The notes: generated from the sequence alone by a model not told the origin. Positions 13,731 through 52,824 are shown, counted from the stretch's first letter. The stretch: 64,000 bases of DNA from Candidatus Moanibacter sp. (GCA_965226025.1 CBDDCD010000003.1:985227-1049226), one strand, 5' to 3'. Program-made: numbers and translations.

Positions 13731-13797
13731 GGAGTCTGTCGGACGAGCTCTGTCGCCTGCAAAGCAATCGAACCTCAGAGTCCGACAGAATCCTAGG
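13731..13797 (-). repeat. Dispersed inverted-repeat element, short form (preceded by a partial extra end at about 13700..13724)
   Basis: GGAGTCTGTCGGACGAGCTCTGTCGCCTGCAAAGCAATCGAACCTCAGAGTCCGACAGAATCCTAGG. Its reverse complement aligns with the other copies. Ends 1 nt before the symporter ATG (13799). An additional AAAGTTCATACCGACAGATTCC half-end lies at 13701..13722. Confidence 0.85.
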
Positions 13798-13798
13798 C

Positions 13799-15688
13799 AT
13801 GACAGTTCAGGCTTGGACTTACCTGTTTGTAGCCCTGACTTTTGGCCTCTACCTCGGTATCGCCTGGTGGAGCCGGGTGCGGGACACGATGGGCTTTTAT
13901 GTCGCGGGTCGCGGGGTACCGGCGGTGGCCAACGGTATGGCAACGGCCGCCGATTGGATGAGCGCCGCCTCATTCATTTCCATGGCCGGGTTAATCTCCA
14001 CCATGGGTTATGCCGGAGGGGTCTATCTGATGGGATGGACGGGGGGCTTTGTCTTACTTACCCTGTTGATCGCGCCCTATCTGCGGAAATTCGGCCACTA
14101 CACGGTGCCCGATTTTGTCGGTGATCGATTTCCCGCGGCGGGTGCGGTCGTTGAAGATTCGGCAGCCGTCACCACATCCGTATTGAGGCGGTTAAGCCGG
14201 AATCCTGCCCGGTTGGTCGCGGTGCTATGTGCGGTCTTTATCAGTTTCACCTATGTTGCCGGTCAAATGCGCGGAGTGGGGGTTGTTTTCTCTCGATTTC
14301 TCGAGGTCGACATCAAGATCGGCGTGATGATCGGGATGTCGATCGTCTTCATTTACGCCACCTTGGGTGGGATGAAGGGCATTACGTGGACTCAGGTGGC
14401 GCAGTATTGGGTCTTGATCACTGCCTTTCTCATTCCCGCCTTTGCCATATCGTTCAAATTGACCGGAACCCATTTGCCGCAGGCTGGGCTGGGAGGGACT
14501 CTCCTCGAAAACGGGGCCTTCTTGCTGGATAAACTCGATGCGGTTCAGCAGGACTTGGGATTCTCCAGCTACACGGAAGCCTTCACCGGAGGATGGACCA
14601 AAGCGAATGTTTTGCTGGTCACGTTTGCCTTGATGGCGGGAACGGCAGGCTTGCCTCACGTTATCGTTCGCTTCTACACGGTACGGTCGCCGAGAGCGGC
14701 GCGATGGAGCGGGTTCTGGGCCCTATTCTTCATTGCCTGCCTCTACCTCACCGCGCCTGCCATCGCCGGGTTTGCCCGAACCTACATGCTGCAAACGCTT
14801 AATGAGGCCACCGCCGGGAATCTCCCTCGATGGTTTCAGAGCTGGGAAAAGACGGGACTCATACTCTGGTTGGATGACGGCGACGGCCGTATCAAGTATT
14901 CGGCAGGTGACGAGAATGAGATATTTCGGCGCGGCGCCCTCGGAGAATCCGAATTCATCGAGGTTATCCGTCAGCATCTGCTCTGGATCGACACTGAAGG
15001 AGATCAAGGCGAGGATGGTCGGGCTGTCCTCAGATCTCGGGGGCTGAGTGGTCCCGATCGTGATATCATCGTTCTTGCGACGCCCGAGATGGCGGAACTC
15101 TCCAACTGGATAATTGCCTTTGTCGCTGCCGGCGGGCTGGCCGCCGCTCTTTCCACGGCGAGTGGTCTGCTCCTGGTCATCTCATCGTCCGTGGCGCACG
15201 ATCTCTACTACCGGGTCATTCGGCCCGACGCCAGCGAAAGGATGCGGCTCGGCGTTGGGCGAGGTGTCATTGGCGTGGCCGTAATCATAGCCGGAGTCTT
15301 CGGAATATACCCTCCCGGCTTCGTAAGCCAGGTGGTGGCCTTCGCCTTCGGCCTGGCGGCGGCCAGCTTCTTTCCCGTTATCGTACTCGGTATTTTCAGC
15401 AAGCGTGTCGGCACTTTGCCCGCGGTGTGCGGAATGCTGGTGGGGATCTCTTTCACCGCCTTCTATATTCTGGGCACGGTCTTCTTTGGAATGGAACGTT
15501 GGACCTTCGGGATATTTTCTCAAGGAATCAATCCGCAGGGCATCGGAACCATCGGAATGATCCTCAATTTTGCCGTCACTATCGCGGCCACGCAATTTAC
15601 CGCGCCGCCCAGTAAGGAAGTTCAAGCCATGGTCGACACGATTCGCGAACCCGAGGGCCTCCCACCCGCGGTCGATATCGATCACTAG
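13799..15688 (+). CDS. Sodium:solute symporter family permease (ActP / VC_2705-like large subunit)
   Basis: 629-aa polytopic ORF. GFYVAGRGVPAVANGMATAADWMSAASFISMAG is the SSF signature region. Follows the DUF4212 gene. Confidence 0.9.
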   Translation: MTVQAWTYLFVALTFGLYLGIAWWSRVRDTMGFYVAGRGVPAVANGMATAADWMSAASFISMAGLISTMGYAGGVYLMGWTGGFVLLTLLIAPYLRKFGHYTVPDFVGDRFPAAGAVVEDSAAVTTSVLRRLSRNPARLVAVLCAVFISFTYVAGQMRGVGVVFSRFLEVDIKIGVMIGMSIVFIYATLGGMKGITWTQVAQYWVLITAFLIPAFAISFKLTGTHLPQAGLGGTLLENGAFLLDKLDAVQQDLGFSSYTEAFTGGWTKANVLLVTFALMAGTAGLPHVIVRFYTVRSPRAARWSGFWALFFIACLYLTAPAIAGFARTYMLQTLNEATAGNLPRWFQSWEKTGLILWLDDGDGRIKYSAGDENEIFRRGALGESEFIEVIRQHLLWIDTEGDQGEDGRAVLRSRGLSGPDRDIIVLATPEMAELSNWIIAFVAAGGLAAALSTASGLLLVISSSVAHDLYYRVIRPDASERMRLGVGRGVIGVAVIIAGVFGIYPPGFVSQVVAFAFGLAAASFFPVIVLGIFSKRVGTLPAVCGMLVGISFTAFYILGTVFFGMERWTFGIFSQGINPQGIGTIGMILNFAVTIAATQFTAPPSKEVQAMVDTIREPEGLPPAVDIDH

Positions 15689-15788
15689 GAATCTGTCGGA
15701 CTTTGAATATCGCAACATCGCGGAGGTTCGGATTCAACGGTGAAGGGTGCAAATCTGACCAAGTCCGTGCCGACAGATTCCTGCTAGG
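15685..15788 (+). repeat. Dispersed inverted-repeat element, long (~104 nt) form
   Basis: CTAGGAATCTGTCGGACTTTGAATATCGCAAC...GTGAAGGGTGCAAATCTGACCAAGTCCGTGCCGACAGATTCCTGCTAGG. Its TAG (15686..15688) is the symporter stop codon. Confidence 0.85.
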
Positions 15789-15950
15789 TTCAGAGTGTCG
15801 CCCGAAGTGTGACAGAGAGTGAGACAGTATGTCAGAAATGGCGCATCAGAGTCAGCCTCCATCTAGTCGATTCAGATTCTTAAGATTTTGGTCTCAAGCG
15901 ACTTGTGGGGGTTGTGTCTCACCTGGCACGCTCTCTGCTTAACGCTGGGC

Positions 15951-17912
15951 GTGAGTAAAGTAATCGGAATCGACCTGGGAACCACCAATTCGTGCATGGC
16001 CGTAATGGAAGGGGGGGAACCGGTCGTGATTCCCAATTCGGAAGGGGCGAGAACGACCCCTTCGGTGGTGGCGTTCGGAAAGAACGGCGAACGTCTCGTC
16101 GGGCAGTCTGCAAAGAGGCAGGCCGTCACTAATCCGGAGAATACCATTTTTTCGGCAAAGCGGTTGATTGGAAGAAAGCACGAAGAGGTGCAGGAGGAGG
16201 CGAAGCATCTCCCTTACAAGATCGGGAAAGGGAAGAATGGCGACGCCTGTATTGAATGTGAGGCCGAGGGCAAGACCGAACAATATACGCCGGAGCAGAT
16301 CTCGTCAATGATATTGGCGAAACTGAAGGCGGATGCGGAGACTTATCTGGGCGAAAAAGTGACCGAGGCCGTGATCACGGTTCCAGCCTATTTCAACGAC
16401 GCTCAGCGCCAGGCCACCAAAGACGCGGGCACCATTGCCGGTCTCGACGTCAAAAGGATCATCAATGAACCCACCGCCGCCTCGCTCGCCTATGGCTTGG
16501 ACAAAAAGAGCGATGAGGTAATCGCGGTCTACGATCTCGGCGGCGGCACCTACGATATTTCCATTCTCGAAATTGGTGACGGCGTCTTTGAAGTCAAAGC
16601 GACCCATGGGGATACCCATTTGGGGGGAGATAACTGGGATGCCACCATAATCGATTGGCTGGTCGAGGAATTTAAGGGTGACAGCGGGATCGATCTGAAG
16701 CAGGACCCGATGGCTCTGCAGCGTCTTAAAGAAGAGGCCGAAAAGGCCAAGATCGCCCTCTCTTCGACGCAGCAAACAGATATCAATCTGCCCTTTATCA
16801 CGGCCGATGCGAGCGGGCCTAAGCATCTAAATGTGAATCTGACTCGGGCAAAGCTGGAGCAACTCTGTGATCGTCTCTTTGAGCGTACTGTGGCTCCATT
16901 TCGAACCTGTCTCGAAGATGCGGAGTTGAGTGCGGGAGATATTCACGAGCTCGTCATGGTGGGAGGGATGACCCGCAGTCCGAAGATCCATGATGTCGCC
17001 AAAGGGCTGGCAGGAAAAGAACCTCACAAGGGAGTGAATCCCGACGAAGTGGTTGCGGTGGGCGCCGCCATTCAGGGTGCCGTCTTACAGGGCGACGTGG
17101 ACTCCGTCCTGCTTCTCGATGTCACGCCGCTCACCCTGAGCATTGAGACCGAAGGGGGCATCTCGAATCCTATGATCGAACGGAACACGACCATTCCAAC
17201 GAAAAAGGCGCAGATCTACTCCACCGCCTCGGACAGCCAACCCAGCGTGGACATTCGCATCCTCCAGGGAGAGCGTCCCATGGCCAGAGATAACAAGGTG
17301 CTGGGTAACTTTCGCCTCGACGGAATCTCGCCGGCTCCGCGGGGTGTGCCTCAGATCGAGGTGACCTATGATATTGACGCCAACGGAATACTTCAGGTCA
17401 CGGCCAAAGACATGGGGACGGGACGCGATCAAAAGATCTCCATTACAGGTTCATCGGGGTTGAGCCAGGAAGAGATTGACAAGATGCGCGAAGAGGCCGA
17501 ATCGCATGCCGCCGAAGACAGCAAGCTGAAGGGGGAAGTCGAGACTCGCAACAAACTGGACACCCTCATCTACCAGACCGAAAAGCTGATTAAAGAGAAC
17601 GGGGATAAGATTCCTGACGACAAAAAGAGCGCTATCGAGGAGTTGATCACGGAGGCCCGTAAAGCGGTCGAATCGAATAATGTTGAACAGATGAATGCGG
17701 CCTTGGAGAAACTCCAGAACGACAAGACGCTCCAGGAAGCGGTAACGGAGATGTATGCCCAGGCCCAGGCAGAGGCCGGCGCTCCACCCGAGGAGGCTGC
17801 ATCCGGTTCCACACCTCCTCCCGAAACGGCTACCGGCTCGAGTGGAAATGCAGCCGACGAAAGTGTGGTCGATGCCGATTTTGAAATGGTCGACGACGAG
17901 AAAGAGAAGTGA
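15951..17912 (+). CDS. dnaK: Molecular chaperone DnaK (Hsp70)
   Basis: ORF 15888..17912. The canonical N-terminus (M)[13 protein letters not shown] starts at GTG 15951. Also shows [20 protein letters not shown] and an acidic C-terminal tail. Confidence 0.95.
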
Positions 17913-17992
17913 ATTTATCTCGGAGGCGAGGCCGCTTGTGCGGTGAAACTCTCCCCGGGAAAGTGATTACCCAAATTGAACGAATCTCACAA

Positions 17993-18059
17993 GAAATCTG
18001 TCGGAGAAGCTTTGGCACTTGTAGAGCAATCGAATGACAAAGTTCGACAGACTCCTAGC
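17993..18059 (-). repeat. Dispersed inverted-repeat element, short form
   Basis: GAAATCTGTCGGAGAAGCTTTGGCACTTGTAGAGCAATCGAATGACAAAGTTCGACAGACTCCTAGC. Lies between dnaK and groES. Confidence 0.85.
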
Positions 18060-18096
18060 TTGAGATAGATTAACCCAAAAAAAGGAAGAAGCACGT

Positions 18097-18390
18097 ATGA
18101 AACCTAAGATCAAACCTCTCGGAGACCGCGTTTTGATATCGGCGGTCGAAGAAGATGAGCAAGTTAAGGGCGGAATCATCATTCCCGATACGGCCAAGGA
18201 AAAGCCTCAAGAAGCTGAGGTTATTGCTTTGGGAACGGGAAAGACAGATGACAATGGAAAGGTCATCAAATTCGCCGTAAAAGTTGGAGATCGAGTGATC
18301 GTCAGCAAGTATGGAGGTACCGAAGTCAAATTTGACGATCGGGAATACTCTCTGGTACGCGAGGACGATATCCTCGGAATAATCGGTTAA
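18097..18390 (+). CDS. groES: Co-chaperonin GroES
   Basis: 97-aa [13 protein letters not shown]...[22 protein letters not shown]...[14 protein letters not shown]. Confidence 0.95.
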
Positions 18391-20055
<1,665 letters not shown>

Positions 20056-20088
20056 GCCCCGAATCCAATCTTTAACGATTAACGCAAG

Positions 20089-20123
20089 AACGCTTCCCTC
20101 AAAAGGGGAAGCGTTTTGCTTTT
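20089..20123 (+). terminator. Rho-independent terminator after groEL
   Basis: Stem AACGCTTCCC / GGGAAGCGTT (20089..20098 and 20106..20115) with a 7-nt loop, followed by TTGCTTTT. Confidence 0.75.
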
Positions 20124-20145
20124 GAGGACTAGTACAATGTCCCGT

Positions 20146-20958
20146 CTAAATATTCGGATATAGTTTCTTGAGTTTGATCCTTGCATCATCGGTCGTAAAG
20201 CGCGAATCAATCTTGGACTGGCGTCCGTTGCGATCCCTTTCCCATGCTGAGATTTCTCTGCACATGCTAGCCACGTCCGGAATTCTTCGGTCCAGGCACT
20301 GGCTATTCAGGGCACTGAGTTCGATCTCTGCGATATTGAGCCAACTACCGTGTTTGGGGGTATAATGGATCTCCAATCGCTCGGCCAATGCTCTGGCTTC
20401 GGGGGCCGCAAAGGTCTCGTAGAGAGAGGTAATTGAATGGGTATTGAGATTGTCCATCACAAGAATCACCTTTGCGGCCTCGGGATAGTGCACAATCAAC
20501 AGTTCCCTGATCTGCAGGGCCCAGTCTTTGCGGGTTCTTCTTGCGGTGACGCTGACGTGGCGCCAGCCTCCCAACGGTTCAACGAACAAGAAGATTTCAG
20601 CGACCCCCTTTCGGGCGTATTCATGGTCGTAGCGCATTGGCTTTCCGGGGGCCGTTGGAATAGGCACCTTGACCTCATCGACGAGCTGCTTGCACGATTC
20701 ATCCATGCATATTTGAGGATACATCGGATCGTAGGGAAGATGATATACCGCCAAGATGTCTTCCATGCACGCGACAAAAGCCGCACTCTGTTTTGGCGGA
20801 ATTTTCCAGCACTTCCTCAGGTGAGGCTTAAGTTCGTTGTTTTTAATGCCTTCTGCACTGATGACTTTGAGATCTGCTCGAAGATATCCAAACGCACCAG
20901 TTCTTCGGCCAGAAGCCGCACTGTCCATCGTTTGCGCCCCGGCGGTGGCGAGGAACAA
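20146..20958 (-). CDS. IS630 transposase OrfB (DDE catalytic part, expressed by -1 frameshift from OrfA)
   Basis: Contains ICMDESCKQ (D), VILVMDNLNTHS (D), HGSWLNIAEIE (E). A -1 slip on TTAAAAAC (complement of 20839..20846) joins ...VQKALK to NNELKPHLRKCWKIPP, the usual IS630 junction. Confidence 0.8.
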   Translation of the reverse strand: MFLATAGAQTMDSAASGRRTGAFGYLRADLKVISAEGIKNNELKPHLRKCWKIPPKQSAAFVACMEDILAVYHLPYDPMYPQICMDESCKQLVDEVKVPIPTAPGKPMRYDHEYARKGVAEIFLFVEPLGGWRHVSVTARRTRKDWALQIRELLIVHYPEAAKVILVMDNLNTHSITSLYETFAAPEARALAERLEIHYTPKHGSWLNIAEIELSALNSQCLDRRIPDVASMCREISAWERDRNGRQSKIDSRFTTDDARIKLKKLYPNI

Positions 20959-21278
20959 GCCAAGGCCAGCAACCTTGCCTCTTTTTCACCGTCGAAGATC
21001 GACGGCACCGGGGGCGTTTCCCGTTTCTTGCGGTCCAGCGCCGCTGTCATCCCGCCTTCGACGAAACGCCGTTTCGTATTCTCTACCGTGCGCGACGTTA
21101 CCCCGAGTGCTTGGGCAATGCGGGCACTCGTCCACGCTGGACCCTCATGACCACTGTCACACAACAGCAATGTTCGTGCGCGAACGAATTTCTTCGCTCC
21201 GACTCTGTCCCTCCTGGTCAACAATTCGAGCTCAAACCGTTCTTCGGCGATAAGCTCAATCCGATATCGCTTTGCCAT
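20817..21278 (-). CDS. IS630 transposase OrfA (HTH DNA-binding part)
   Basis: Starts MAKRYRIELIAEER at ATG 21278, preceded by AAGGAGG. Winged-helix / HTH-like sequence. Ends just after the A-run frameshift site. Confidence 0.8.
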   Translation of the reverse strand: MAKRYRIELIAEERFELELLTRRDRVGAKKFVRARTLLLCDSGHEGPAWTSARIAQALGVTSRTVENTKRRFVEGGMTAALDRKKRETPPVPSIFDGEKEARLLALACSSPPPGRKRWTVRLLAEELVRLDIFEQISKSSVQKALKTTNLSLT

Positions 21279-21401
21279 GGCAACCTCCTTTCCTAAGAGT
21301 TGCCAATAATACAATACGAATATTTAATGCGGACAATGTACTAGGTAAGAATCTATCGTTGAGGCTTGCGACAAGGGAGGGATCGGTAGTTTGGTTGCCC
21401 A

Positions 21402-23030: not shown

Positions 23031-23258
23031 CGGCCCGAACATTTCACAGATCTTCTACTACGATCCCGGCAGGCCGGGACGACCTCAGAGGGTCTTAACT
23101 CTCTTTCACCCGCTGCGCTGCGGAAAGGCGTTGGCACGTAGCGATTCCCGGCGTGCCGGGATCTCGCGACGAAGCAATGTCCGGGCCGCGGGTGGCCTTT
23201 TTACAGGACGAAACACTTGTCTTTCAGGTGGGTTCGCGGCGTGCTTCGACCGCAGTCC

Positions 23259-23420
23259 ACGATTGAGTGAACGACGGGAGTGGAGGCATCAGTAAGGTCG
23301 CCGAAGTCGTTCACTGAGTCGTGCCCTAAAGTCGATTCGGAGTTCTCGATTACAGTGGACGATTGGGTGGACGACGGGAGGAGATACCGGAAGGGATGTC
23401 GCTGTCGTTCACTGAATCGT
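23259..23420 (+). ncRNA. Candidate structured RNA: two tandem 17-bp hairpins exactly 100 nt apart
   Basis: Unit A pairs ACGATTGAGTGAACGAC (23259..23275) with GTCGTTCACTGAGTCGT (23306..23322). Unit B pairs ACGATTGGGTGGACGAC (23359..23375) with GTCGTTCACTGAATCGT (23404..23420). Arm differences are tolerated as G-U pairs only if the + strand is transcribed. Both loops start GGGAG. Confidence 0.3.
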
Positions 23421-23535
23421 GCACTGCGATCGGATTCGTCTAATCTCGGAAGATTCAGGAGAGTGTGTGAAATATCCGGTCTAAGGAATACGTTGACATG
23501 CAGAAAAGGGCAGTCCATTAATCCGTTTTTTGAGG

Positions 23536-23605
23536 CTAGGAGTCTGTCGGACTTTGTGAATCGATTTCTGTGCAAGAATCAGAGCTCGTCCGACAGACTC
23601 CGAGC
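23536..23605 (+). repeat. Dispersed inverted-repeat element, short form
   Basis: CTAGGAGTCTGTCGGACTTTGTGAATCGATTTCTGTGCAAGAATCAGAGCTCGTCCGACAGACTCCGAGC. Confidence 0.85.
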
Positions 23606-23623
23606 CTCATGCAAACAGAGTGC

Positions 23624-23651
23624 TTGACCACAACGGGGACAGATTTACATT
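23624..23651 (+). promoter_or_regulatory. Possible sigma70-type promoter of the TonB cluster
   Basis: TTGACC (23624..23629), 16-nt spacer, TACATT (23646..23651), ~80 nt upstream of the first gene. This is pattern match only. Confidence 0.25.
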
Positions 23652-23731
23652 AACCGCCTCGTGAGCAATAAAGGTAGAGTCTGGTATCTCTTCCTCAATG
23701 TAGGGGGCTTTATTCTGGATCGTAATTGAAG

Positions 23732-33103: not shown

Positions 33104-33106
33104 GGG

Positions 33107-33146
33107 GAATCGATTTACGAAGTTCAAAGTCCGACAGATTCCTAGG
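33107..33146 (-). repeat. Dispersed inverted-repeat element, truncated copy
   Basis: The minus strand reads CCTAGGAATCTGTCGGACTTTGAACTTCGTAAATCGATTCC. This is the left half only, and it ends 3 nt before the permease ATG. Confidence 0.75.
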
Positions 33147-33354
33147 CAACGAACTGAATTTCGGTTCAGGATCAGGTATTGAACAGATGCTTGGAGGATA
33201 AGTAGGTTCCTGCATTCCCATATGGCAATCCCAATTGAATTGCGGATTGCGTGGAGTTTGGTTCTTTTTTCGGAGAGTCGGCAGTTACGGAGTACAAGGA
33301 TGGCGCATCCTTGGCGATGGAGGGCAACAATCACGAGAAGGCAATAGGACAACG

Positions 33355-35888: not shown

Positions 35889-35958
35889 CTATGAGTCTGT
35901 CGGAATTTGTAATTCGATTGCTGTGCAAGTGTAAGAGCAAGACCGATCGACTCCTAGC
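35889..35958 (+). repeat. Dispersed inverted-repeat element, short form
   Basis: CTATGAGTCTGTCGGAATTTGTAATTCGATTGCTGTGCAAGTGTAAGAGCAAGACCGATCGACTCCTAGC. Starts 1 nt from the mdh start codon (35885..35887). Confidence 0.85.
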
Positions 35959-36106
35959 AAAAAGAAAATGAAACTGGGTTTTGTGGAAAAGAGCATTTCT
36001 TACTCCTCAGGTGTCCGGTGTCAGTCTACAGAATCTCATTGCAAAATTTCACGATTGGATAGCTCGGTTTGTTTCAGTTTCCACGGGCACCACTTCCACC
36101 TCGGTT

Positions 36107-41051: not shown

Positions 41052-41056
41052 AAATT

Positions 41057-41401: not shown

Positions 41402-42409
41402 ATGAGAAGGGCGAGATTAAAGATACGGGGTCGGAGGGCGGTGTATCATTGTATATCGAGGACAGTAAATCGGGAGAAGCTGATGGATGGGGTAGCGAAG
41501 GAGGTGCTTAGGAAGCAGCTTTGGCAGATTGCCGATTTCTCGGGAGTGGAAGTGATCACCTACTGTCTGATGAGCAACCATTTCCATCTGCTGATAAGAG
41601 TTCCGGACAAGGAGAAAATTGAGGTGAAGGACGAGGAGTTGATGCGTCGGTACCGGGTTCTCTATCCAAGGAGGACTGAGCACGCACCAGCCGATCCTAG
41701 GGTATTGGAGGAAAAGCTGAAGGAGGGAGGAGAGGAAGGGGAGGCTATCAGAAAGCAGTTGTTGGCAAGAATGCATGATATTTCTGAGTTCATGAAGAGT
41801 CTGAAGCAGAGGTATACGATCTGGTATAACCGAACGCGAGGCCGGGTGGGGACGTTGTGGTCGGAGCGGTACAAGAGTGTGCTGGTTGAGGGGCGCGAGG
41901 CGGCGCTCCGAGTAACAGCGGCCTACATTGAACTGAACCCGGTTCGGGCTGGGTTGGTGGAGGATCCGAAAGAATATCGATGGAGCGGCTACGGGGAGGC
42001 GGTAGGGGGCAGTGAGCAGTCGCGAAGGGGGATCATCGATGCGGTGCAGGGGATTCAGATGGGGAGCTTGAGCTGGATCAGAGCGGCACGGGAGTATCGA
42101 ATACTGTTGTATTGTAAGGGCTCGGGCGTAAGGCCGGCATCGGAACGTGAGGGTAGCTTTCCGAGGGAGGAGTGGGTAGGAGTGATGGAAGCCGGGGGCA
42201 GGATTCCGGTGGCGGAAGCGCTGAGGTGTCGGGTGCGGTATTTCACGGATGGGGCAGTACTTGGATCCCAGACTTATGTTGAAGAGTTTTTCGAGGAGCA
42301 TCGAGATCAATTTGGAAAGAAGCGGAGGAGTGGCTCACGGAAAATGAAGGGGTGCGATTGGGAGGGATTGAGAGTGCTGAGAGATCTGAGGAGGGAAATT
42401 TTCACGTAG
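41402..42409 (+). CDS. REP-associated tyrosine transposase (RAYT, IS200-like HUH/Y1 family) with C-terminal extension
   Basis: 335-aa ORF. YHCISRTVN, HUH motif LMSNHFHLLI, catalytic-Tyr region AAYIELNPVRAGLVEDPKEYRWSGY. Confidence 0.8.
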   Translation: MRRARLKIRGRRAVYHCISRTVNREKLMDGVAKEVLRKQLWQIADFSGVEVITYCLMSNHFHLLIRVPDKEKIEVKDEELMRRYRVLYPRRTEHAPADPRVLEEKLKEGGEEGEAIRKQLLARMHDISEFMKSLKQRYTIWYNRTRGRVGTLWSERYKSVLVEGREAALRVTAAYIELNPVRAGLVEDPKEYRWSGYGEAVGGSEQSRRGIIDAVQGIQMGSLSWIRAAREYRILLYCKGSGVRPASEREGSFPREEWVGVMEAGGRIPVAEALRCRVRYFTDGAVLGSQTYVEEFFEEHRDQFGKKRRSGSRKMKGCDWEGLRVLRDLRREIFT

Positions 42410-43075: not shown

Positions 43076-43499
43076 TTGATATGGAGGAGCTGATCGATCG
43101 GGAAGAGTGCTTGAGCTCTGTTCATTTCCTAGGAGTTCCAGTCCAATAGATTACTCTGCTAGTCTTGTACAGATCTGATTCGGTCGAGCCGAAGTCTTTC
43201 ACGGTCATCGAAGAGTCGTCTCCCGGTTAACGAAATTGCGATTATCATGCCGAGGCCGACGATAAGCAGCTGGAGGGCCATGCGAAAGGAATTTACCAAT
43301 AGAGGCCTCGATCGAATGGCTGGGGATCCCGTCGAGCAAGACTTTGCCGGAATGTGGATCCACCAGAGGGGAATCTTTCTCAAACGCAGAGCGTTTGCAA
43401 TGACCGACGCGGAGCTTTCGAGGCAGAGGAAGACGAAGAGAAAGAGGAAGATCGATTCGTATCCGATGATACGATTCTATCTCCGGTCGATCGGTTGTC

Positions 43500-45260: not shown

Positions 45261-45308
45261 GCTCCGCTCTGGGATGCGCGGTCGTTCGTCTTTATTCCTT
45301 GATCGGCG

Positions 45309-45348
45309 AAAAAAAAAGCAGGCAACCTTGGCGCGGTTGCCTGCTTTT
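45309..45348 (-). terminator. Rho-independent terminator (minus-strand reading; A-run/T-run on both sides)
   Basis: AAAAAAAAA GCAGGCAACC ttggcgc GGTTGCCTGC TTTT. On the minus strand the hairpin is followed by T9. Lies downstream of the 45382..45999 gene. Confidence 0.75.
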
Positions 45349-45381
45349 CTAAAATGGATCTTTTCTCAAGAGGAATTGCCA

Positions 45382-45999
45382 TCAACCAGCGGCTTCGTCT
45401 GCTCCCTCGTGCGCCTCTCGTACTGCATCGTGGAGCTGCCTCCGGAGGTCCTTGAGTTCGTTGTGATCTATTGCATGATCCTGGTGGAATTGCTCGATCA
45501 GAGCAGCTTTTCCCTCGTCCGACAGACCGTCGAGTTGATCGCGGAGGGTTCTGCGAGCCTGAGCGAGGTCAGACCTCTTGTCGCGCAGAGTGTCGCGAAG
45601 ATTGACCACGGCGGGATCGTCCGAGATGGGGCCGTGGCGAGGACGATCGTTCTTGAGATTATGGAGAGCGTGACGGATGTGCCTCGCGGCCTGATGGTGC
45701 TCCTGGATGAGATCCAGGTTGTCGGAACGAAACTGCACCCTCACTGCCCGAATTTCGTCCACAGTCGGATTGTCAAGATTGTGGAGCAAATCGCGTAGCG
45801 CAGACCGCAACTCTTGCTGTGTGGCACGGTAGTCTTGGATCCTGTCTCGGAGGGCCTCCGGTATGTTGTGATCGGGCCGATCGAAGGCGGGACGATCGCC
45901 GGCAGGACGGTTCGGAGCGTCGGACTCCGCGTGAGACTTCACTCCAAGGTAGAATGTACCTACCGCGATGATGAATGCTATTTTGAAAAGTCTGTTCAT
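45382..45999 (-). CDS. Secreted helical His/Arg/Asp-rich protein (possibly Spy/CpxP-like), hypothetical
   Basis: Start at Met100 of the track ORF (ATG 45999): MNRLFKIAFIIAVGTFYLGVKSHA signal peptide. Repetitive helical sequence (RDRIQDYRATQQELRSALRDLLHNL...). Family assignment is tentative. Confidence 0.45.
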   Translation of the reverse strand: MNRLFKIAFIIAVGTFYLGVKSHAESDAPNRPAGDRPAFDRPDHNIPEALRDRIQDYRATQQELRSALRDLLHNLDNPTVDEIRAVRVQFRSDNLDLIQEHHQAARHIRHALHNLKNDRPRHGPISDDPAVVNLRDTLRDKRSDLAQARRTLRDQLDGLSDEGKAALIEQFHQDHAIDHNELKDLRRQLHDAVREAHEGADEAAG

Positions 46000-46294
46000 T
46001 GTTCTTCCTTCTATTCTTGTAGTTTTCGGTTTCGGATTTGTTTCACATATAGCAAATCGATTGCCAATTGCTAGTATCGTTGTTAACGCTTTGTTAATTA
46101 ACAGGTTGCGATTAGAATGCAATCTCAGAGAGCTCTTCGAAGACCTCGTGTCAGGGGAATATTCCCCATCGATAGCGATTGCTTTTGAAGTCGTTGGGGA
46201 ATATTTCGCATACAGGCTCAAACAATGATAGGGCCAAAAAGTTTCACCAATTGACATCGAATTCGCGGTCGCCCGACTAGAGCAGAAAATAGAC

Positions 46295-46993
46295 ATGGGA
46301 ATCGACTACAGTCAATTTGAAGAACGAGTTGGCGACGTGAAGTCGCGAATCAAGGCGGCTTGTAAAGTTTGTGGGCGCGATCCTAAGGAAGTTGAAATCC
46401 TGGCAGTGACAAAGTCGCACACCACGGAAGCGATTGAGTATGCCGCCCGTTATGGGCTGAAAAGAATCGGTGAGAATCGTGTTCAGGAAGCGGCCTGGAA
46501 GTCAAGGGAAACGAATGCTCGGGTCGATTGGGAACTGATTGGTCATCTGCAGACCAACAAAGTCCGGTTGGCCGTTTCTCTATTCGACCGTATTCAATCG
46601 GTCGATCGAACAAAGTTGGTGGGAGCGCTCGATCGTTGTTGCGAGGAAGCGGGTAGGTCGCTTCCCGTGCTTCTCCAGGTAAACTCGGGAGAGGATCCGA
46701 GAAAGTTTGGAGTGAGCTGCGAGAAAGCCCCGGGATTGTTGGAGGCAGCGCAGGAGGCCCAGCATCTCAGAGTGGAGGGACTGATGACGATCGCCCCTTT
46801 GAGCTCAGATAAAGATGTGGCCAGATCGGCATTTGATCGGCTGCACGAATTGCGACTTCTGCTCGCTGAGAGATCCGGTCTTCCTCTAAGCGTTTTGTCC
46901 ATGGGCATGACGGAAGACATGGAGGCGGCAATTCAAGCAGGAAGCACGTGCATCCGTGTGGGAACAGCTCTTTTCGGGAGCCGCGCGGGCTAG
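46295..46993 (+). CDS. yggS: YggS-family pyridoxal-phosphate homeostasis protein
   Basis: 232-aa ORF. ILAVTKSH (PLP Lys), IGENRVQEA, IGHLQTNKV, SMGMTEDMEAAI, IRVGTALFG. Confidence 0.9.
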   Translation: MGIDYSQFEERVGDVKSRIKAACKVCGRDPKEVEILAVTKSHTTEAIEYAARYGLKRIGENRVQEAAWKSRETNARVDWELIGHLQTNKVRLAVSLFDRIQSVDRTKLVGALDRCCEEAGRSLPVLLQVNSGEDPRKFGVSCEKAPGLLEAAQEAQHLRVEGLMTIAPLSSDKDVARSAFDRLHELRLLLAERSGLPLSVLSMGMTEDMEAAIQAGSTCIRVGTALFGSRAG

Positions 46994-47053
46994 GAATTTC
47001 CCGGGTTGAATTTTGAGAAATTGGGGATTGCGCAGGAGGAGGAATTGGATTCA

Positions 47054-47935
47054 ATGGAAACCGCAGTGGCAGAAGGAGGTATGGGTTCACTGAGGGAGCG
47101 TTCGCTCATCCGGTTGATCGACGACGAATCACCTGTCGTTCAGGCAGCGGTTCGCGATGAACTGAAGCGACAGGGAGATAAAGGGATTGCTTTCCTGAAA
47201 AGATTGAGCCAGCGACGCAACAGAATTCTCGCCTCACACGCCCGTCAATTTCTCGAGGAGTTGGAAGGACCGGATCCGGTTGCGAGTTTCATCCAGTTCA
47301 TACGGTCGCTCCAGTTTGAACTTGAGACTGGATGCCTTTTGCTCGATCGAACCGTGTATCCCGAGTTGGACACATCCGAATGCTGTATGTTGCTCGATGC
47401 GATCGGCGCCCGATGCCGCGAACTAATGGTCTTGCCGAGTACGCCTTGGGAAAAGTGCAAGGTTCTCAACCGCGTAATCTTTCACGAGTATGGTTTTCGG
47501 GGAAACGTAGAGAACTACGACGATCCGTTGAATAGCTTTATCGGCCATGTTCTTCGTCGACGGAAGGGGCTGCCGATTACCCTTTGCATCGTCTACATCC
47601 TTGCGGCTCAGCGCTGCGGATTGGACCTGGAACCGGTCGGGATGCCCTTCCATTTTCTAGTTGGCTGTTTCTTGGATAAGACTCCCTTTTACATCGATGC
47701 CTTCGAACGGGGAAAATTTCGCACTACGGAAGAGCTCAAGGCAGTCTTGGAGAGGAAGAACATCGAGCCCTTGACGGAATACCTCGCACCATCACCAGTT
47801 TCGGATGTACTGCGTCGATGCTGTGAGAATCTGGTGGACGACTACAGGCACGAAGGTGACCCGGAGCGGGCTCGCCTCTTCGAGAGATTCGTTTTTGAGT
47901 TCGAGGGCACCTATCGTCGGCACGCCAATCCTTAG
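47054..47935 (+). CDS. SirB1/transglutaminase-like-fold protein with C-terminal helical repeats
   Basis: YDDPLNSFIGHVLRRRKGLPITLCIVYILAAQRCGLDLEPVGMPFHFLV matches the SirB1 / Transglut_core2 pattern. Start uncertain (ATG 47054 or TTG 47006). Confidence 0.6.
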   Translation: METAVAEGGMGSLRERSLIRLIDDESPVVQAAVRDELKRQGDKGIAFLKRLSQRRNRILASHARQFLEELEGPDPVASFIQFIRSLQFELETGCLLLDRTVYPELDTSECCMLLDAIGARCRELMVLPSTPWEKCKVLNRVIFHEYGFRGNVENYDDPLNSFIGHVLRRRKGLPITLCIVYILAAQRCGLDLEPVGMPFHFLVGCFLDKTPFYIDAFERGKFRTTEELKAVLERKNIEPLTEYLAPSPVSDVLRRCCENLVDDYRHEGDPERARLFERFVFEFEGTYRRHANP

Positions 47936-48001
47936 GAATCTGTCGGACTTTGACGTTCGATTGCTTCGCAAGTGACCGGGTTCGTCCGACAGCCTCCTAG
48001 C
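47932..48001 (+). repeat. Dispersed inverted-repeat element, short form
   Basis: TTAGGAATCTGTCGGACTTTGACGTTCGATTGCTTCGCAAGTGACCGGGTTCGTCCGACAGCCTCCTAGC. Its TAG (47933..47935) is the stop codon of the upstream gene. Confidence 0.9.
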
Positions 48002-48051
48002 GATAGAATTGGCTCGAAGGGGGGGCATAGTTCCAGGGTAAAGAATCAGCG

Positions 48052-48954
48052 ATGGCTACTTTCTCTCTTACTGAGTTGAAGCGGTGGCGTTTTGAGGCCA
48101 CTGCTTTGGCTGTTATCGGTCATCCGATTGAGCATTCAATCAGTCCCGAAATGCACAATGCCGCTCTCACTGCGATGGCAAAAAAAGATGGCGCTTTTGA
48201 GAGTTGGGAATATTTCCGATTTGATATTCCACCCGAACTGCTGCCTGACGCGATTCCACTATTTCACCGCCACCGCTTTAGAGGAATCAATCTGACCCTG
48301 CCCCACAAAGTGCAGGTGATGGACCTGCTGGAAAAGATCGACCCGGTAGCTCGTAGCATGGGAGCGGTCAATACTCTCCTTTGGAGTCCGGAGGGATACC
48401 ATGGATACAATTCAGACGGCTATGGACTGAAACGTGCGCTTGAGGTGGACCTTGACGCGAGTCTACAAGGAGCAGACGTCATCCTCCTTGGGGCGGGAGG
48501 CGCTGCTCGCGCCGCGGCTGTTCAGTGTTTGGAGAGTGGTTGTAAGGAATTGTGGATTGGTAATCGAACGGCGTCTCGCCTTGAGGCTATGCTTGCAGGA
48601 TTGAGAAAATGTAAAGATGCGAATCGGGTTACGGGTTTCAGTTTGTCGGAAATCCCTCGGGAACTCCCGAGGTCGGGAGTTCTTATCAATGCGACATCGC
48701 TCGGCCTGAGGGAGGATGATCCAGCTCCGATCGATACGGCAAGATTCGACCGTTCGCTGAGGATTTTTGATATGGTCTATACCCCGCCAAGGACGACTCT
48801 CATGAAATCCGCTGAAGAGCGAGGTATGCGGACCGCCAACGGACTCTCCATGTTAGTCTGGCAGGGTGTCCGATCCCTGGAGATCTGGAGCCAAGCAGAG
48901 GTTCCGGACGAGACTATGTTCGGGGCCGTAAGAAAGGCGATGTCAGAATCCTAG
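48052..48954 (+). CDS. aroE: Shikimate dehydrogenase
   Basis: 300-aa ORF. VIGHPIEHSISPEMHNAAL, INLTLPHK, GAVNTL, GYNSDGYG, LLGAGGAARA. Confidence 0.9.
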   Translation: MATFSLTELKRWRFEATALAVIGHPIEHSISPEMHNAALTAMAKKDGAFESWEYFRFDIPPELLPDAIPLFHRHRFRGINLTLPHKVQVMDLLEKIDPVARSMGAVNTLLWSPEGYHGYNSDGYGLKRALEVDLDASLQGADVILLGAGGAARAAAVQCLESGCKELWIGNRTASRLEAMLAGLRKCKDANRVTGFSLSEIPRELPRSGVLINATSLGLREDDPAPIDTARFDRSLRIFDMVYTPPRTTLMKSAEERGMRTANGLSMLVWQGVRSLEIWSQAEVPDETMFGAVRKAMSES

Positions 48955-49052
48955 GAATCTGTCGGAATGAACCTTATTGCAATTTAGGCCCTTCAACTTC
49001 CGATGTAACGTCCACGCCGGTTGCGAAGCTCAAAGTCCGACAGATTCCTAGG
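48951..49052 (-). repeat. Dispersed inverted-repeat element, long (~102 nt) form
   Basis: CTAGGAATCTGTCGGAATGAACC...GGTTGCGAAGCTCAAAGTCCGACAGATTCCTAGG. The reverse complement of its interior (TTTGAGCTTCGCAAC...TTGAAGGGCCTAAAT...) aligns with the long copy at 15685. Its TAG (48952..48954) is the aroE stop. Confidence 0.85.
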
Positions 49053-49062
49053 ATTCCTCTAA

Positions 49063-49560
49063 TCATTCAAGCATGGGCTGGAAATCATCATCGGGTCTAG
49101 GTTTAAGTTTGCCGTGCTGAATGATTCGTACGCAGGTGTTCCATCGTAGGATCGCTTCGTCGTTTTCTTCAGGACGAATCGCTTCCGCCTTTTCGTACCA
49201 TTCCATGGCCTGTCGCAGCCATTCGAAGGCGTCGAAGGAGGAGCCGGGCGAGGGTCTGTTGAGGTGAGTCCGGGCGCGCCGTTCGCAGACGATACCGCGA
49301 TAATAGCAGCGTTCGTATTGGTCGTCGAGACGATTGAGCAGCTGCTGTATTCTATTCTTACTAACGGTGTGTGCTTCACTGAATTGATCGGTGAGCGAGA
49401 GCAAGAGGGCGACCAGTGCTTCCTGGTTGTCGGGTTCGATTTCGAGGATATCCAGGCAAATGCTTTCAGCGGCACGGGATTCGTTGAGAAGCCGGTAGCG
49501 CATCGCTCTCTGGAGGGCGGCTGGAACGGCCTCTATGCGTAGGGGTTTGAGTTTAATCAT
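49063..49560 (-). CDS. Conserved-looking helical (TPR-like) hypothetical protein
   Basis: 165-aa ORF with no competing frame. No motif I can name. Confidence 0.45.
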   Translation of the reverse strand: MIKLKPLRIEAVPAALQRAMRYRLLNESRAAESICLDILEIEPDNQEALVALLLSLTDQFSEAHTVSKNRIQQLLNRLDDQYERCYYRGIVCERRARTHLNRPSPGSSFDAFEWLRQAMEWYEKAEAIRPEENDEAILRWNTCVRIIQHGKLKPRPDDDFQPMLE

Positions 49561-49629
49561 GGCCGCGACAGTTCGATTCTCTTTCTCAATCTAGAGTGGT
49601 GGCGTCGGAAGGCAAAGATCTTTTCCAAC

Positions 49630-50958
49630 CTAGAAGCGCTCCCAAAGATCTCGCGCTAATTCCCTCGCTCGCGCCGCGATTCGTTCTTCGTCGATCTCGA
49701 CGAGTTGGTGGTCCCGCATCAGGATACGTCCCTCTGCGATCGTGGTGCGAACGGAGGTGTGTGCGATTCCGAAGTAAACATGGCCATAGAACGTCTCCTC
49801 ATTGAAGGGAGTGGGTGGTGCGTAATCCAGAATCGCGAGATCGGCTTTGCATCCTGCGCCGATTTCCCCGATGCCTTCGTCCCAGTAGCGACTTGTGATC
49901 TTCCGGTTGTTGACGAAAAGCGCGTCCAATACTTCGTTGAAGGCGATGCTTGGGTTGCTCCCGCTAAGGTGCTGCGCCCAGAGAGCGACTCGGGCCTCCT
50001 CGAGCATATTGTTGGTCATGGAATCGGTCCCGAGGCCGTAGAGAATGCCCTTCTCACCTAACCGGACCAGGTCCGCCACTCCGACAGCGTTGTTCAAATT
50101 TGACTGGGGCAGATGGACGCCAATCGTATCGGTTTCGGCGAGAAGATCCATTTCTTTATCGTTCACATGAATGCAGTGGGCGCAGATCGTCTCTGGGCCG
50201 AGCACTCCGAATCGGTGCAATCTCTCAATCACCCGGATTCCGTGATTATCCATACTATGATTCTGGTCGGCCAGATCTTCCGCGCAGTGAATGTGAAACC
50301 CCGAATCGAGTTCCTTTCCCCTCTCTACCGCTTTTGTGAGTGTCTCGTCATTGATCGTAAATGCGGCATGGAGACCGAAGAGCGCCCTTACCCGGCTCGA
50401 TTCCATAGTTTTCTTTTCGGAGATAAACTCCGCATTTTCTTCGATGCCTTGATTGGCAATCTTGGTGCCTTCACGGTCGGTCACTTCGAAACAGAGAGAG
50501 GCCCTCAGCCCGGTCTCAATGACGGCCTTCTCTATTTCTCGAAGGGTGCCGCGCACATGCCCTTCGCTGGCATGGTGATCGATCAGAGTGGTGGTGCCGT
50601 GCTTGATCGCGTCGATGCAGCTCACCAAGGCGCTGTAATAGCAGTCTTCGGGGGTGAGCTGGCGATCCAGTCTCCACCAGAGATTTTCGAGGACTTCGAC
50701 AAAATTGCGCGAAGGAGGCACTTTGCCCAGACCACGGGAAAGAGCGCTGTAGAAGTGAGTATGGGCGTTGATGAAGCCGGGGAGAATCAACTGACCGGAT
50801 GCGTCGATTACGGTGTCCGCAGGGGTGGATTCCAAATCCACGGTGGGAGCTAAGCGACGGATGCTATCGCCCTCTATAAGAATCGAATGGTCGAGTAAGA
50901 GGCGATTGCGCTCCCCGAGAGTTGCAACGGTACCATGATTGATCAGGATGGTAGACAC
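49630..50958 (-). CDS. Amidohydrolase-superfamily aminohydrolase (SsnA / chlorohydrolase / nucleobase-deaminase-like)
   Basis: 442-aa ORF. LILPGFINAHTHFYSAL (HxH metal motif), GTTTLIDHHAS, GFHIHCAED, CAHCIHV, GLGTDS. Confidence 0.8.
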   Translation of the reverse strand: MSTILINHGTVATLGERNRLLLDHSILIEGDSIRRLAPTVDLESTPADTVIDASGQLILPGFINAHTHFYSALSRGLGKVPPSRNFVEVLENLWWRLDRQLTPEDCYYSALVSCIDAIKHGTTTLIDHHASEGHVRGTLREIEKAVIETGLRASLCFEVTDREGTKIANQGIEENAEFISEKKTMESSRVRALFGLHAAFTINDETLTKAVERGKELDSGFHIHCAEDLADQNHSMDNHGIRVIERLHRFGVLGPETICAHCIHVNDKEMDLLAETDTIGVHLPQSNLNNAVGVADLVRLGEKGILYGLGTDSMTNNMLEEARVALWAQHLSGSNPSIAFNEVLDALFVNNRKITSRYWDEGIGEIGAGCKADLAILDYAPPTPFNEETFYGHVYFGIAHTSVRTTIAEGRILMRDHQLVEIDEERIAARARELARDLWERF

Positions 50959-51330
50959 GGTTGAATCGAATCTAACGTCTCAAACGGCTTCACCAGGATG
51001 GAGGATCATCACTTCCCGGATTCTTGAACCAATGGAGTTGGTGAGCCTGAAACATACCTGGAACTGATCTTCTGCTACGACGACGGATCTCACCCCGTGC
51101 CAATCCCTCGTTAATCTTAGCTCGATTCGGACGTTTCAGTAAACTTGAAATCTGGGCAGATTGCGAGGTCCGAGATTGAACAGCTTTCATTCTTAATTGA
51201 AAAGTTTGATTGCCAAGCGTCTACCAATTGTGGTATGTAAACAATCGCAGGGAACCTTAGGGGATGGGAAGAGGAATCTGGCATTCACCCGTCCCTCGTC
51301 CGACGGCTACTTCATTAGATCGTTGAATCT

Positions 51331-52824
51331 ATGAAGTACGAATACTCACGAATGCCGGCGGCGAGTCGGCTGACAAAGGGCGTTCTATTTTCGTTTTGCA
51401 TAGGCGCCGCTTTTTTAAACGGGGGCCTGACTCCGGTGCTGGGGCAACAGCTGAATCTGGTTGTCCTGGCTGAGGTGTCGGGCGAAGTCTCGGTGGTGCA
51501 GGAAGACACCGGTGAAAGCTTTGCGGCGGAGAAAGGGCTCCAGATGTTTGAGGGCTACAGTGTGACCAGTGGAATCAACGGAAACGCGGTTCTTGTATTC
51601 TCGAATGGATCAACCGTGACGGTTCGCGAGAACACCCATCTTTTGATTTCGCAATTCTTCCAAGATCCCCATGAGGAGACTGAGCCGATCGACTCTTGGA
51701 CGCAGGAACCGGGGCGCTCGAATACGGTCCTGAATTTGGACTACGGGAAGATAGTTGGGAGCACGCGCAAGCTCTCGAGCCGCTCCATTTACAGGATCGA
51801 AACACCAGTGGGAATTGCTGGAATCCGCGGTACCGATTGGTTCATTGAAGTCGCAGTTATCACCGCTGATGTCCTGGACGGAGTCTTTGGCGTCACTCAG
51901 GGACTCATGGAGGTAACTCCTCTCGGCGCTCGTTTCACTACCATTGGAGGCAATCAACAGGTGATCGTAAATTTCAGGCAGAAGGACACGGGTATTCCCG
52001 AGGTTGATGTCACGGTCGAGAATGCCCTGACTACCGAGCAGAAGGAGAAAATCCTAGCCATCGTGCAGGCCGCCAATCGAGCCTTGAAGGAAGTGGCCAA
52101 GGAGATGCGCAAGGAGGAAGTCAAGTCCAGGAGAGACGATCGCCGAAGCACGGAAGAAGAGGAGGAAGAAGAAGAAGGCGAACCGAAAAAGATCGATGTG
52201 CAGAAGGAGGAAAAGCGGGATGAGCGGACGGAAGAACGGGATGCTCGTCGAGAAGGTGATGCTACGGCGCAGGAAGAGGGCGACAACAGGGGAGTGGAAG
52301 GTGACTCCGAAGGAGGGACTGAGCCCGTTGCAGCTTCATCCGATTCGCCGCAAGATACGGCGGGATCAGAGGGTGGAGATGATTCGGGCACAACCTCCGC
52401 CGAATCCCGTTTGGAGGCCGCCTTGGACGCCGAAAGTGAAACGCTTTCCAGCGATTCCAATCAGACGGAGACTTCGGGTGATACCTCCTCTGGCGATCAG
52501 ACGGGGGAATTGACGCGGGCCGAAATTGTCGCCGATCGGGTAGAGACCGTGATCGACGCTCAAGAACTGAGTCTTGTCGATGCCGATCGGGATAGACGGG
52601 AGACCATCGTGCGGCGGGCGCGCGAGCAGGAAGTGGGAACGACTGAGAGACTTCGAAGCGAACAGAGATCACAGGTCGGCGGTGCAGAGACGACTGTTAC
52701 TGTCGACCTGGGTCAGTTCGATCTGGAAAATGTCATCGACGCGGTCGGCGAACAGCTGCAAGACCCGACCGAGACGCTGGGCGCGAGAGCGGACGCCGAT
52801 TCGCGGCGGCCCAGGACGCCGTAG
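51331..52824 (+). CDS. FecR-domain protein with long hyper-acidic low-complexity C-terminal half
   Basis: 497-aa ORF. Signal-like N-terminus. FecR-like beta region (SGINGNAVLVFSNGSTVTVRENTHL...IETPVGIAGIRGTDWFIEV). Then EEEEEEEGEPKK... and D/E/S/T-rich sequence. Confidence 0.6.
   Translation: MKYEYSRMPAASRLTKGVLFSFCIGAAFLNGGLTPVLGQQLNLVVLAEVSGEVSVVQEDTGESFAAEKGLQMFEGYSVTSGINGNAVLVFSNGSTVTVRENTHLLISQFFQDPHEETEPIDSWTQEPGRSNTVLNLDYGKIVGSTRKLSSRSIYRIETPVGIAGIRGTDWFIEVAVITADVLDGVFGVTQGLMEVTPLGARFTTIGGNQQVIVNFRQKDTGIPEVDVTVENALTTEQKEKILAIVQAANRALKEVAKEMRKEEVKSRRDDRRSTEEEEEEEEGEPKKIDVQKEEKRDERTEERDARREGDATAQEEGDNRGVEGDSEGGTEPVAASSDSPQDTAGSEGGDDSGTTSAESRLEAALDAESETLSSDSNQTETSGDTSSGDQTGELTRAEIVADRVETVIDAQELSLVDADRDRRETIVRRAREQEVGTTERLRSEQRSQVGGAETTVTVDLGQFDLENVIDAVGEQLQDPTETLGARADADSRRPRTP

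Follow-up and report, generated by a model that had tools for sequence, protein, structure and literature searches.

A 64-kb stretch of DNA from Candidatus Moanibacter sp. (GCA_965226025.1, CBDDCD010000003.1:985227-1049226; all 64,000 nucleotides are hereafter called the window) contained 11 copies of a short inverted-repeat element, which were detected with an nhmmer profile built from the aligned copies. These copies are probably MITEs (small transposable elements bounded by inverted repeats), that is, non-coding derivatives of a DDE insertion sequence (IS) of the IS1182 family, which CTAG targeting and the loss of intragenic insertions would place on stop codons. The coincidence with stop codons is a general and expected by-product of these two processes, and it is amplified by the TAG-rich stop usage of the clade. 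The protein neighbours placed the host in the Verrucomicrobiota, within the Opitutales/Puniceicoccaceae group.

The copies comprised six short ones of ~67 bp (E1, E3, E5, E6, E8, and E9), three long ones of ~100 bp (E2, E4, and E10) and two partial ones (E7 and E11). Their lengths ranged from 45 to 103 bp, and none of the 11 had coding capacity. Each copy carried terminal inverted repeats of 14-21 bp with the form (C)TA-GGA(A/G)TCTGTCGGAC(TTTG). The terminal repeat of the element was GGA(A/G)TCTGTCGGACT, and CTA almost always stood ahead of it, which gave CTAG at both ends. The arm motif TAGGAATCTGTCGGA had 18 matches in the window at no more than 2 mismatches, compared with 0.15 expected. The arm cores (TCTGTCGGA) were better conserved than the interiors of the copies, and single arms were not self-complementary. 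The interior contained a small conserved inner hairpin (TTGC...GCAA), and the orientation of the copies was read from their interiors. The copies and arm remnants in the window were as follows:

E1, short, 397..466, plus strand: the end on the TTTG side shares 1 nt with the start (CAT 395-397) of a minus-strand GFO_IDH_MocA gene.
E2, long, 13625..13724, plus strand: the DUF4212 open reading frame (ORF) 13310-13645 runs into the element to a TGA at 13643-45.
E3, short, 13729..13797, minus strand: forms a tandem with E2; the symporter ATG at 13799 comes 1 nt after its end ...CCTAGG.
E4, long, 15686..15787, plus strand: the symporter stop is formed by the left TAG (15686-88), and the right end bears another CTAG (15784-87).
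E5, short, 17991..18059, minus strand: in the spacer between dnaK (stop 17912) and groES (start 18097), off any gene boundary.
E6, short, 23535..23605, plus strand: in the antiporter/DUF3450 spacer, off any gene boundary, with the flank palindrome TGAGGC/TA...TC/GCCTCA.
E7, partial, 33104..33147, minus strand: its truncated side abuts the start of the Xan_ur permease gene (CAT 33101-03).
E8, short, 35889..35957, plus strand: 2 nt from the mdh start (CAT 35885-87).
E9, short, 47933..48001, plus strand: its TAG is the Transglut_core2 stop.
E10, long, 48952..49052, minus strand: its TAG is the aroE stop; its opposite end is 10 nt away from where the convergent gene 49063-49560 stops.
E11, right arm decayed, 52822..52876, plus strand: the FecR-domain gene stops at its TAG.
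Arm remnant TAG GAATCTGGGGATTTACG, 8935..8954, minus strand: on the TAG stop (8952-54) of an acetyl-CoA synthetase gene.
Possible arm remnant TAG GAATTTCCCGGGTTGAATTT, 46991..47013, plus strand: on the TAG stop (46991-93) of an Ala_racemase_N (YggS-like) gene; less clear.
Decayed right half-copy, 5170..5212, plus strand: inside the 3' end of ORF 4553-5212, whose stop is the arm-terminal TAG (...AAGACCGACAGAGGAC TAG).

The relation to the IS1182 family was seen in a scan of one genome per species (596 Gb) with the 15-mer GGARTCTGTCGGACT, which returned at least 116 stretches from many phyla, fewer than the chance count for a 15-mer in 596 Gb. The matches were not due to chance, because nearly all of them were preceded by CTA, they shared subterminal motifs, and many formed inverted pairs. 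The pairs were ~95-270 bp apart (many at ~160 bp) or, in Verrucomicrobiota, formed bare hairpins of 31-34 bp. Two pairs that were 1.5-1.6 kb apart enclosed a transposase, in L068 (1489-3085) and L060 (L-numbers denote loci from other genomes or strains). These transposases, which belong to other genomes and not to the window, scored 291 and 270.9 bits on the NCBIfam model NF033551 IS1182 (cut-off 270). The terminal repeat of 15-20 bp, (CTA)GGA(A/G)TCTGTCGGACT, was identical to the ends of IS1182-family elements of 1.6 kb and of MITEs of ~160 bp found in many phyla. Among 126 distinct ends, positions -3 to -1 were C in 80%, T in 71% and A in 84%, and nothing was conserved beyond. IS1182-family elements from plasmids of Komagataeibacter and P. 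putida, with transposases 46-48% identical to that of L068, had the form CTAG/CAGCCTGTCGG...CCGACAGGCTG/CTAG. CTAG was kept in these diverged members while the first bases of the repeat differed, which argues that CTAG is the target or duplicated site and not part of the mobile unit. The copies were short, non-coding and dispersed, their terminal repeat equalled that of an autonomous element, and they were present or absent between relatives. The copies make up a new family of MITEs, of a kind already known, that is linked to a widespread IS1182 clade whose ends are flanked by CTAG. A literature search found no paper containing the repeat sequence and likewise nothing specific on IS1182 with CTAG, and the MITE set, widespread in many phyla, is apparently undescribed.

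Some variation was observed in the flanks. A T-to-C variant (CCAGG for CTAGG) occurred at the left end of E2 and the right end of E4, and in ~15 of 132 ends in other phyla (L007, L009, L025, L026, L031, L042, L046, L070, L073, L076, L079, L091, L115, and L122); in L007, CCAGG stood at both ends of one element, in inverted and not direct relation. Longer flank palindromes were found at E6, E8 (GC/TA..TA/GC), E10 (GAATCC/TA..TA/GGATTC) and L018 and were not general, and CTAG is itself palindromic. Just outside the non-TTTG end of E1 (469-500) and E8 (35962-35995), there was a conserved flank of ~28 nt, AAGAAAATGAAAnTGnnTTTTG(G). This flank also adjoined three copies, two strong and one weak, in the metagenome-assembled genome (MAG) of 'Candidatus Moanabacter'. 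Its sites (L021 ~3775-3808; L037 ~2700-2732 and 2836-2865) involved both size classes in two genomes, and in L037 it stood on both sides, inverted. The 35-nt similarity between the right-hand flanks of E1 and E8 was not a separate abundant repeat in the window. The conserved flank may represent a repeat outside the element, a target that is preferred, or the context of a pseudo-start.

The sequence-only reading of the window had reported that four upstream ORFs end in the TAG of the element, and all four cases were exact, the TAG being the first three bases of TAGGAATCTGTCGG. The genes were those for an SSF symporter (13799-15688, TAG 15686-88), a Transglut_core2/SirB1-like protein (47054-47935, TAG 47933-35), the shikimate dehydrogenase AroE (48052-48954, TAG 48952-54) and a FecR-domain protein (51331-52824, TAG 52822-24). 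These boundary genes are real, as they encode Pfam domains and were called independently in other assemblies. Such placement is non-random, as had been claimed, since at least 4 of 11 copies would lie exactly on a stop with a probability of ~1e-5 under uniform intergenic placement. Further cases, not listed in that reading, were the arm remnants on TAG stops, the DUF4212 gene, in which an in-frame CAG stood at 13625 where the TAG of the element was expected, and ORF 4553-5212, which ended in an arm-like ...CCGACAGAGGAC TAG. The overlap was also found beyond the window. The full-length IS in L068 abutted the TAG of a 486-residue ORF, and the MITE in L018 provided the TAG of both convergent neighbours. 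The Candidatus Moanabacter MAG carried the same short and long forms, and among its eight copies, two supplied exact TAG stops and one was adjacent to an ATG. The TTTG side faced the gene in six of eight boundary cases (E1, E3, E4, E8, E9, and E11 against E7 and E10), a count that was right; as a bias it was not significant (two-sided P = 0.29), and the inverted copy at the orthologous site of E9 contradicted it.

Bare hairpins of 30-34 bp, which consisted of two arms and almost no interior (e.g., CTAGGAATCTGTCGGACTTTGTCCGACAGATTCCTC), were seen in L039, L063, L067, L012, and L065. Their hosts were other Verrucomicrobiota and one gammaproteobacterium, and in L012, L063, and L067 the TAG of the hairpin was the stop of an ORF of >100 codons.

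The share of copies on stop codons matched the availability of target sites. TAG was the stop codon of 22 of the 49 curated genes in the window and of 23 of the 59 genes called in the relatives (L123, L124, and L141-L143). In bacteria TAG is normally the rarest stop, so its usage here is unusually high. The sites in the window were distributed as follows, where the intergenic counts omit the elements' own CTAGs and the four TAG stops borne by elements are counted among the stops:

TAG sites: 22 at stops, 127 intergenic.
CTAG sites: 7 at stops, 14 intergenic.
TAGG sites: 10 at stops, 28 intergenic.
CTAGG sites: 5 at stops, 8 intergenic.

For a target of CTAG or TAGG, 26-38% of the tolerated sites (non-coding or stop) were stop codons. 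Given this availability, the probability of at least 4 of 11 copies on stops was 0.3-0.65, and for 4-5 of 11 it was 0.13-0.65. In unrelated genomes, 15 of 80 ends coincided with the stop of an ORF of 100 codons or more, compared with 130 of 577 control TAGG sites, and in Verrucomicrobiota only the values were 8 of 19 ends and 42 of 105 control sites, both control sets resting on an ORF-length heuristic. Targeting of (C)TAG was the first of three explanations that the sequence-only reading had offered, and it is correct and sufficient for the stop codons: CTAG was conserved across phyla and in diverged IS1182 elements, and the stop share equalled the site share. It fell short at the start codons, where adjacency went beyond targeting alone.

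The proposed mechanism would run as follows. The transposase would insert at (C/T)TAG and duplicate TA or CTAG, and an insertion at a C-TAG stop would leave an intact TAG at the end of the gene, while insertions within genes would be lost by selection. TAG is the commonest stop in this clade (~40-45%) and non-coding CTAG is rare; about one third of the tolerated targets would then be stops, matching the observed share. An older copy, as a CTAG-ended inverted repeat, may itself be a preferred target, which would give repeated hits on the same stop. Side effects at the junctions would occasionally alter the ends of genes.

Comparison with relatives indicated how old the occupied stops are. Three loci were syntenic with the window, namely L123 and L124 (75 and 70% identity in aroE) and L142 (87% in the symporter). 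The earlier reading had proposed a comparison with orthologous empty sites, where a native stop already at the same position would speak against its claim; at Transglut_core2 and aroE the native stop was indeed already there. The Transglut_core2 gene stopped at the same residue in distant element-free homologues, in which the codon was TAA or TGA, and TAG stood at or near the same position of aroE in three of five distant homologues. A metagenome scan with aroE, used for the C-terminal comparison, returned only relatives with up to 56% identity. Such ancestral stops fit targeting and not creation of the stop by the element. In sister genera (L123 and L124), both stops were also occupied, by different copies: the Transglut_core2 stop bore a short form that was inverted relative to E9, and the aroE stop of L123 bore a decayed short form in place of the long form E10 of the window. 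These different copies and orientations at orthologous stops argue that the same codon was hit by repeated independent insertion or replacement. The site of E7 in L124 contained a decayed counterpart. In L123 and L124 no copy stood at the site of E8, the DAHP synthase stop and the mdh ATG being 17 nt apart, and L142 lacked copies at the sites of E2-E5. In the window, E8 and the DAHP synthase stop are 150 nt apart, and the intervening DNA held arm-like pieces at ~36007-36046 (GTCTACAGAATCTC; GGTGTCCGG). By their sequence these pieces suggest an older decayed copy, and the spacer may have accumulated several insertions.

Remodelling of ORF ends, another of the explanations put forward earlier, applied to a minority of the cases: the symporter had lost four residues, the DUF4212 gene had gained six codons, and aroE had an arm-like tail. 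It did not apply to the positions of the Transglut_core2 and aroE stops, which were ancestral. The closest homologues of the symporter almost all ended in ...(D/E)xAPEH or a close variant, and the window protein ended in ...DIDH, 4 residues shorter. The symporter gene of L142 ended in ...GGA AAC TAG CAGAATGTG, and the homologous CTAG-GTTCAGAGTG was located in the window at E4's right end; the TAG that serves as the stop there is the one at E4's left end. The position of this CTAG in L142 and in the window shows that the truncation of the symporter coincides with the element junction; the truncation either came from an adjacent deletion or is older than the insertion. The DUF4212 gene, which encodes the small partner of the symporter, ran six codons (CAG plus 5) into the element and stopped at the TGA within ...CTTTGA. 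At the end of aroE, the final 11 nt were CAGA(A/T/C)TCC-TAG in the window, L123, and L124 and matched the end of an arm; they may derive from an old arm or, alternatively, represent a target site that resembles the repeat.

Four copies lay 0-3 nt from an ATG, as had been reported, at the oxidoreductase, symporter, permease and mdh genes, the permease copy being the partial E7 with its truncated side touching the ATG. At least 4 of 11 copies would be found within 3 nt of a start with a probability of ~4e-5 under uniform intergenic placement. Only 1.9% of the intergenic positions were within 3 nt of a start, and 5 of ~150 permissible TAG sites were within 6 nt. The N-termini of Mdh and the oxidoreductase were typical of their families, and the permease start aligned with a GTG in the L124 orthologue. 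The mdh ATG was native, and E8 together with ~150 nt of other sequence was lineage-specific. The genes for DUF4212 and the symporter overlapped in L143, and E2 and E3 sit where there must once have been a 2-nt TAG-GC-ATG stop/start junction of this operon. A Shine-Dalgarno-like motif was found 4-18 nt upstream of 11 of the 49 curated genes, and translation initiation here is probably largely Shine-Dalgarno-independent. With the motif this rare, the nucleotides immediately upstream of the ATG may be expendable. Scans for intrinsic terminators and for promoters of the sigma-70 consensus found none at E1, E2/E3, and E8, and an outward promoter of sigma-70 type in the copies was unsupported. The start adjacency is real and only partly explained (the case of E3); the main candidates for the rest are adjacent deletion and a tolerance of such insertions in an organism that has few Shine-Dalgarno motifs.

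Several points weigh against the view that the copies are IS1182-derived MITEs placed by their target. Start adjacency in 4 of 11 copies exceeded the TAG-site null (P = 3e-4 per copy, 0.004-0.012 per arm), and outside the lineage it was absent (1 of 80 ends, and that case was in the Moanabacter MAG, which had two weaker start-adjacent candidates besides), so targeting alone is insufficient for the starts. If the target were a bare TAG, the share of copies on stops would be mildly high (P = 0.07 for 4 of 11 and 0.015 for 5 of 11), and the comparison with other genomes depends on the heuristic named above. CTAG stood at both ends, and, as it is a palindrome, a duplication of TA or CTAG is inseparable from the repeat. 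No copy was polymorphic within the species, as all were fixed in 10 other assemblies, and the duplicated site was not read directly for this reason. The window and the loci of this species contained no autonomous IS1182 copy with the same repeat. The sample of this genome comprised one 64-kb window, to which ~60 kb from one related MAG were added, and an extra 12.5-kb contig of the same genome carried no further copies.

The start adjacency and the shortened symporter bear on the possibility that the transposase makes intramolecular adjacent deletions, in which an end repeatedly attacks a nearby (C)TAG, removes the intervening DNA and so ratchets up to the closest indispensable sequence, either a start codon or a stop codon for which the TAG of the element can substitute. 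The symporter lacked exactly the last 4 residues (xAPEH, with few exceptions among the homologues) from the element junction onwards, and the ancestral-type CTAG stood at the far end of the element; E7 was truncated exactly at the permease ATG, the end of E1 overlapped an ATG, the adjacency was significant and lineage-specific, and with few Shine-Dalgarno motifs the upstream leader may be dispensable. However, no deletion event was directly observed, the mdh spacer was 200 nt longer and not shorter than that of the relatives, and the ends of Transglut_core2 and aroE were unchanged compared with distant homologues. We know of no demonstration of adjacent deletion by IS1182-family transposases, and we consider it unlikely that such deletions set the placement. 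The same observations can be assembled into a broader picture, in which the copies act as self-renewing modules at gene boundaries, with stops re-occupied, or old copies replaced, by transposition that targets or replaces inverted repeats, an adjacent-deletion ratchet, a TAG backed up by a TGA, and hairpins at Shine-Dalgarno-less starts that affect expression; we regard this as quite unlikely.

Selection for a useful transcribed hairpin, such as a stabiliser or terminator at the 3' end of the mRNA or a regulator of initiation, would set the placement without targeting. As RNA, every copy was predicted to form a strong hairpin (-16 to -39 kcal/mol, with z from -2.1 to -5.5), their arm cores were the better conserved part, the Transglut_core2 and aroE stops were occupied in three genera via independent events, and the start adjacency beyond targeting would also suit such a role. 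Yet the hairpins were followed by no U-tract, and the scans of E1, E2/E3, and E8 gave neither a terminator nor a promoter consensus. Covariation was nil (term +0.68), with uncompensated arm mismatches in E1, E3, E5, and E9, and no Rfam family matched anywhere in the window at the gathering score. Copies had decayed in L124 and, at the aroE stop site, in L123, the close relatives L141 and L142 lacked copies at the same genes, and the stop share was accounted for by site availability without added selection. The earlier proposal of a hairpin favoured at mRNA ends therefore gained no positive support, and selection is an improbable cause of the placement. The presence of a Y1_Tnp gene resembling REP-associated tyrosine transposases (RAYTs) at 41483-42409 (Pfam 1.8e-15; NCBIfam REP_Tyr_transpos, 63 bits) raised the question of whether the repeats are REP/REPIN sequences moved by its product, the copies being short, intergenic and hairpin-forming. 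This is extremely improbable, since no arm occurred within kilobases of the gene, single arms were not palindromes, the arms and their CTAG flank agreed at every base with the ends of DDE IS1182 elements, and the 63-bit match was below the cut-off of 80.

Other mobile DNA was observed in the window. The RAYT-like (IS200-type) gene was intact here and in L003/L004, and only fragments of 46 and 97 residues were left in L001/L002, where they adjoined a polymorphic IS insertion. An ISNCY/IS5-like IS at ~1586-3405 (transposase 1786-3264, minus strand) had the ends GAGGCTGTCCCA.../...TGGGACGGGCTC with TAAACTA on both sides. Copies of its 492-residue transposase were located at different places in strains L002-L004, which indicated recent activity. 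A 1.35-kb insertion at 20056-21401, between groEL and the Na-H antiporter gene, encoded an IS630-type DDE_3 transposase (Pfam 1e-24) and was absent in L126 and L127, and a related IS630-like copy was polymorphic in L005 (~3940-5110). The IS630-like and the ISNCY/IS5-like elements were both ruled out as parents of the MITEs, as their ends were unrelated. Near E6, at ~23190-23390 in the antiporter/DUF3450 spacer, the strains differed by an indel of 98-99 nt (lacking in L126), which corresponded to one tandem-repeat unit, GATTGAGTGAACGACGGGAG...GTCGTTCACTGAGTCGTGC. This change was unrelated to the element and was ruled out as a polymorphism of it.

The family can be compared with several known systems. 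The Correia elements of Neisseria, ERIC/YPAL, RUP/BOX and the Rickettsia palindromic elements are bacterial MITEs located at or in gene ends. They are short, have terminal inverted repeats and an AT-containing target, are co-transcribed with the genes beside them, sometimes alter ORF termini and form mRNA hairpins, a profile that the copies described here would share. The copies differ in having no sequence relationship and, by all appearances, another parent transposase, and in that the end itself carries TAG, the main stop of the clade, which makes overlap with stops unusually frequent. To our knowledge, start-codon abutment has not been described for Correia-type families. IS5 elements target YTAR, usually CTAG, with a 4-bp duplication, and IS630 elements target CTAG with duplication of TA. 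Both are DDE transposons with a CTAG-type target that leaves TAG at each junction, as here, and they belong to other families with other terminal repeats. The terminal repeat identical to that of full-length elements and the CTAG flank common to diverged members link the copies to the IS1182 family, from whose elements they differ in being non-coding and 67-100 bp long without a transposase partner in the window. IS1272, a staphylococcal member of the IS1182 family, reportedly targets inverted-repeat structures that lie just downstream of genes and replaces them without duplication (PMC5678879), a behaviour that fits the repeated occupancy of the same stops. Similarly, some copies here lay directly downstream of genes and in or next to palindromic DNA, as in the flank palindromes of E6, E8, and E10. 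Unlike IS1272, they had CTAG at both ends, and replacement would be deduced only from the differing copies at orthologous sites.

These results provide a quantitative example of how the target of a transposon and the stop usage of a clade can together give a placement at gene boundaries that looks designed. They also connect MITEs that are widespread among many phyla with a single IS1182 clade, whose end is flanked by CTAG. For annotation, caution is needed, as the last codons and the stop of a gene can be transposon-derived (the symporter tail, DUF4212, and ORF 4553-5212). The interest of the family rests on the occasional remodelling of gene ends, the repeated occupancy of stops and the lineage-specific abutment of starts; the last, in a genome where Shine-Dalgarno sites are scarce, could help to show how structure beside a start codon is tolerated or used.

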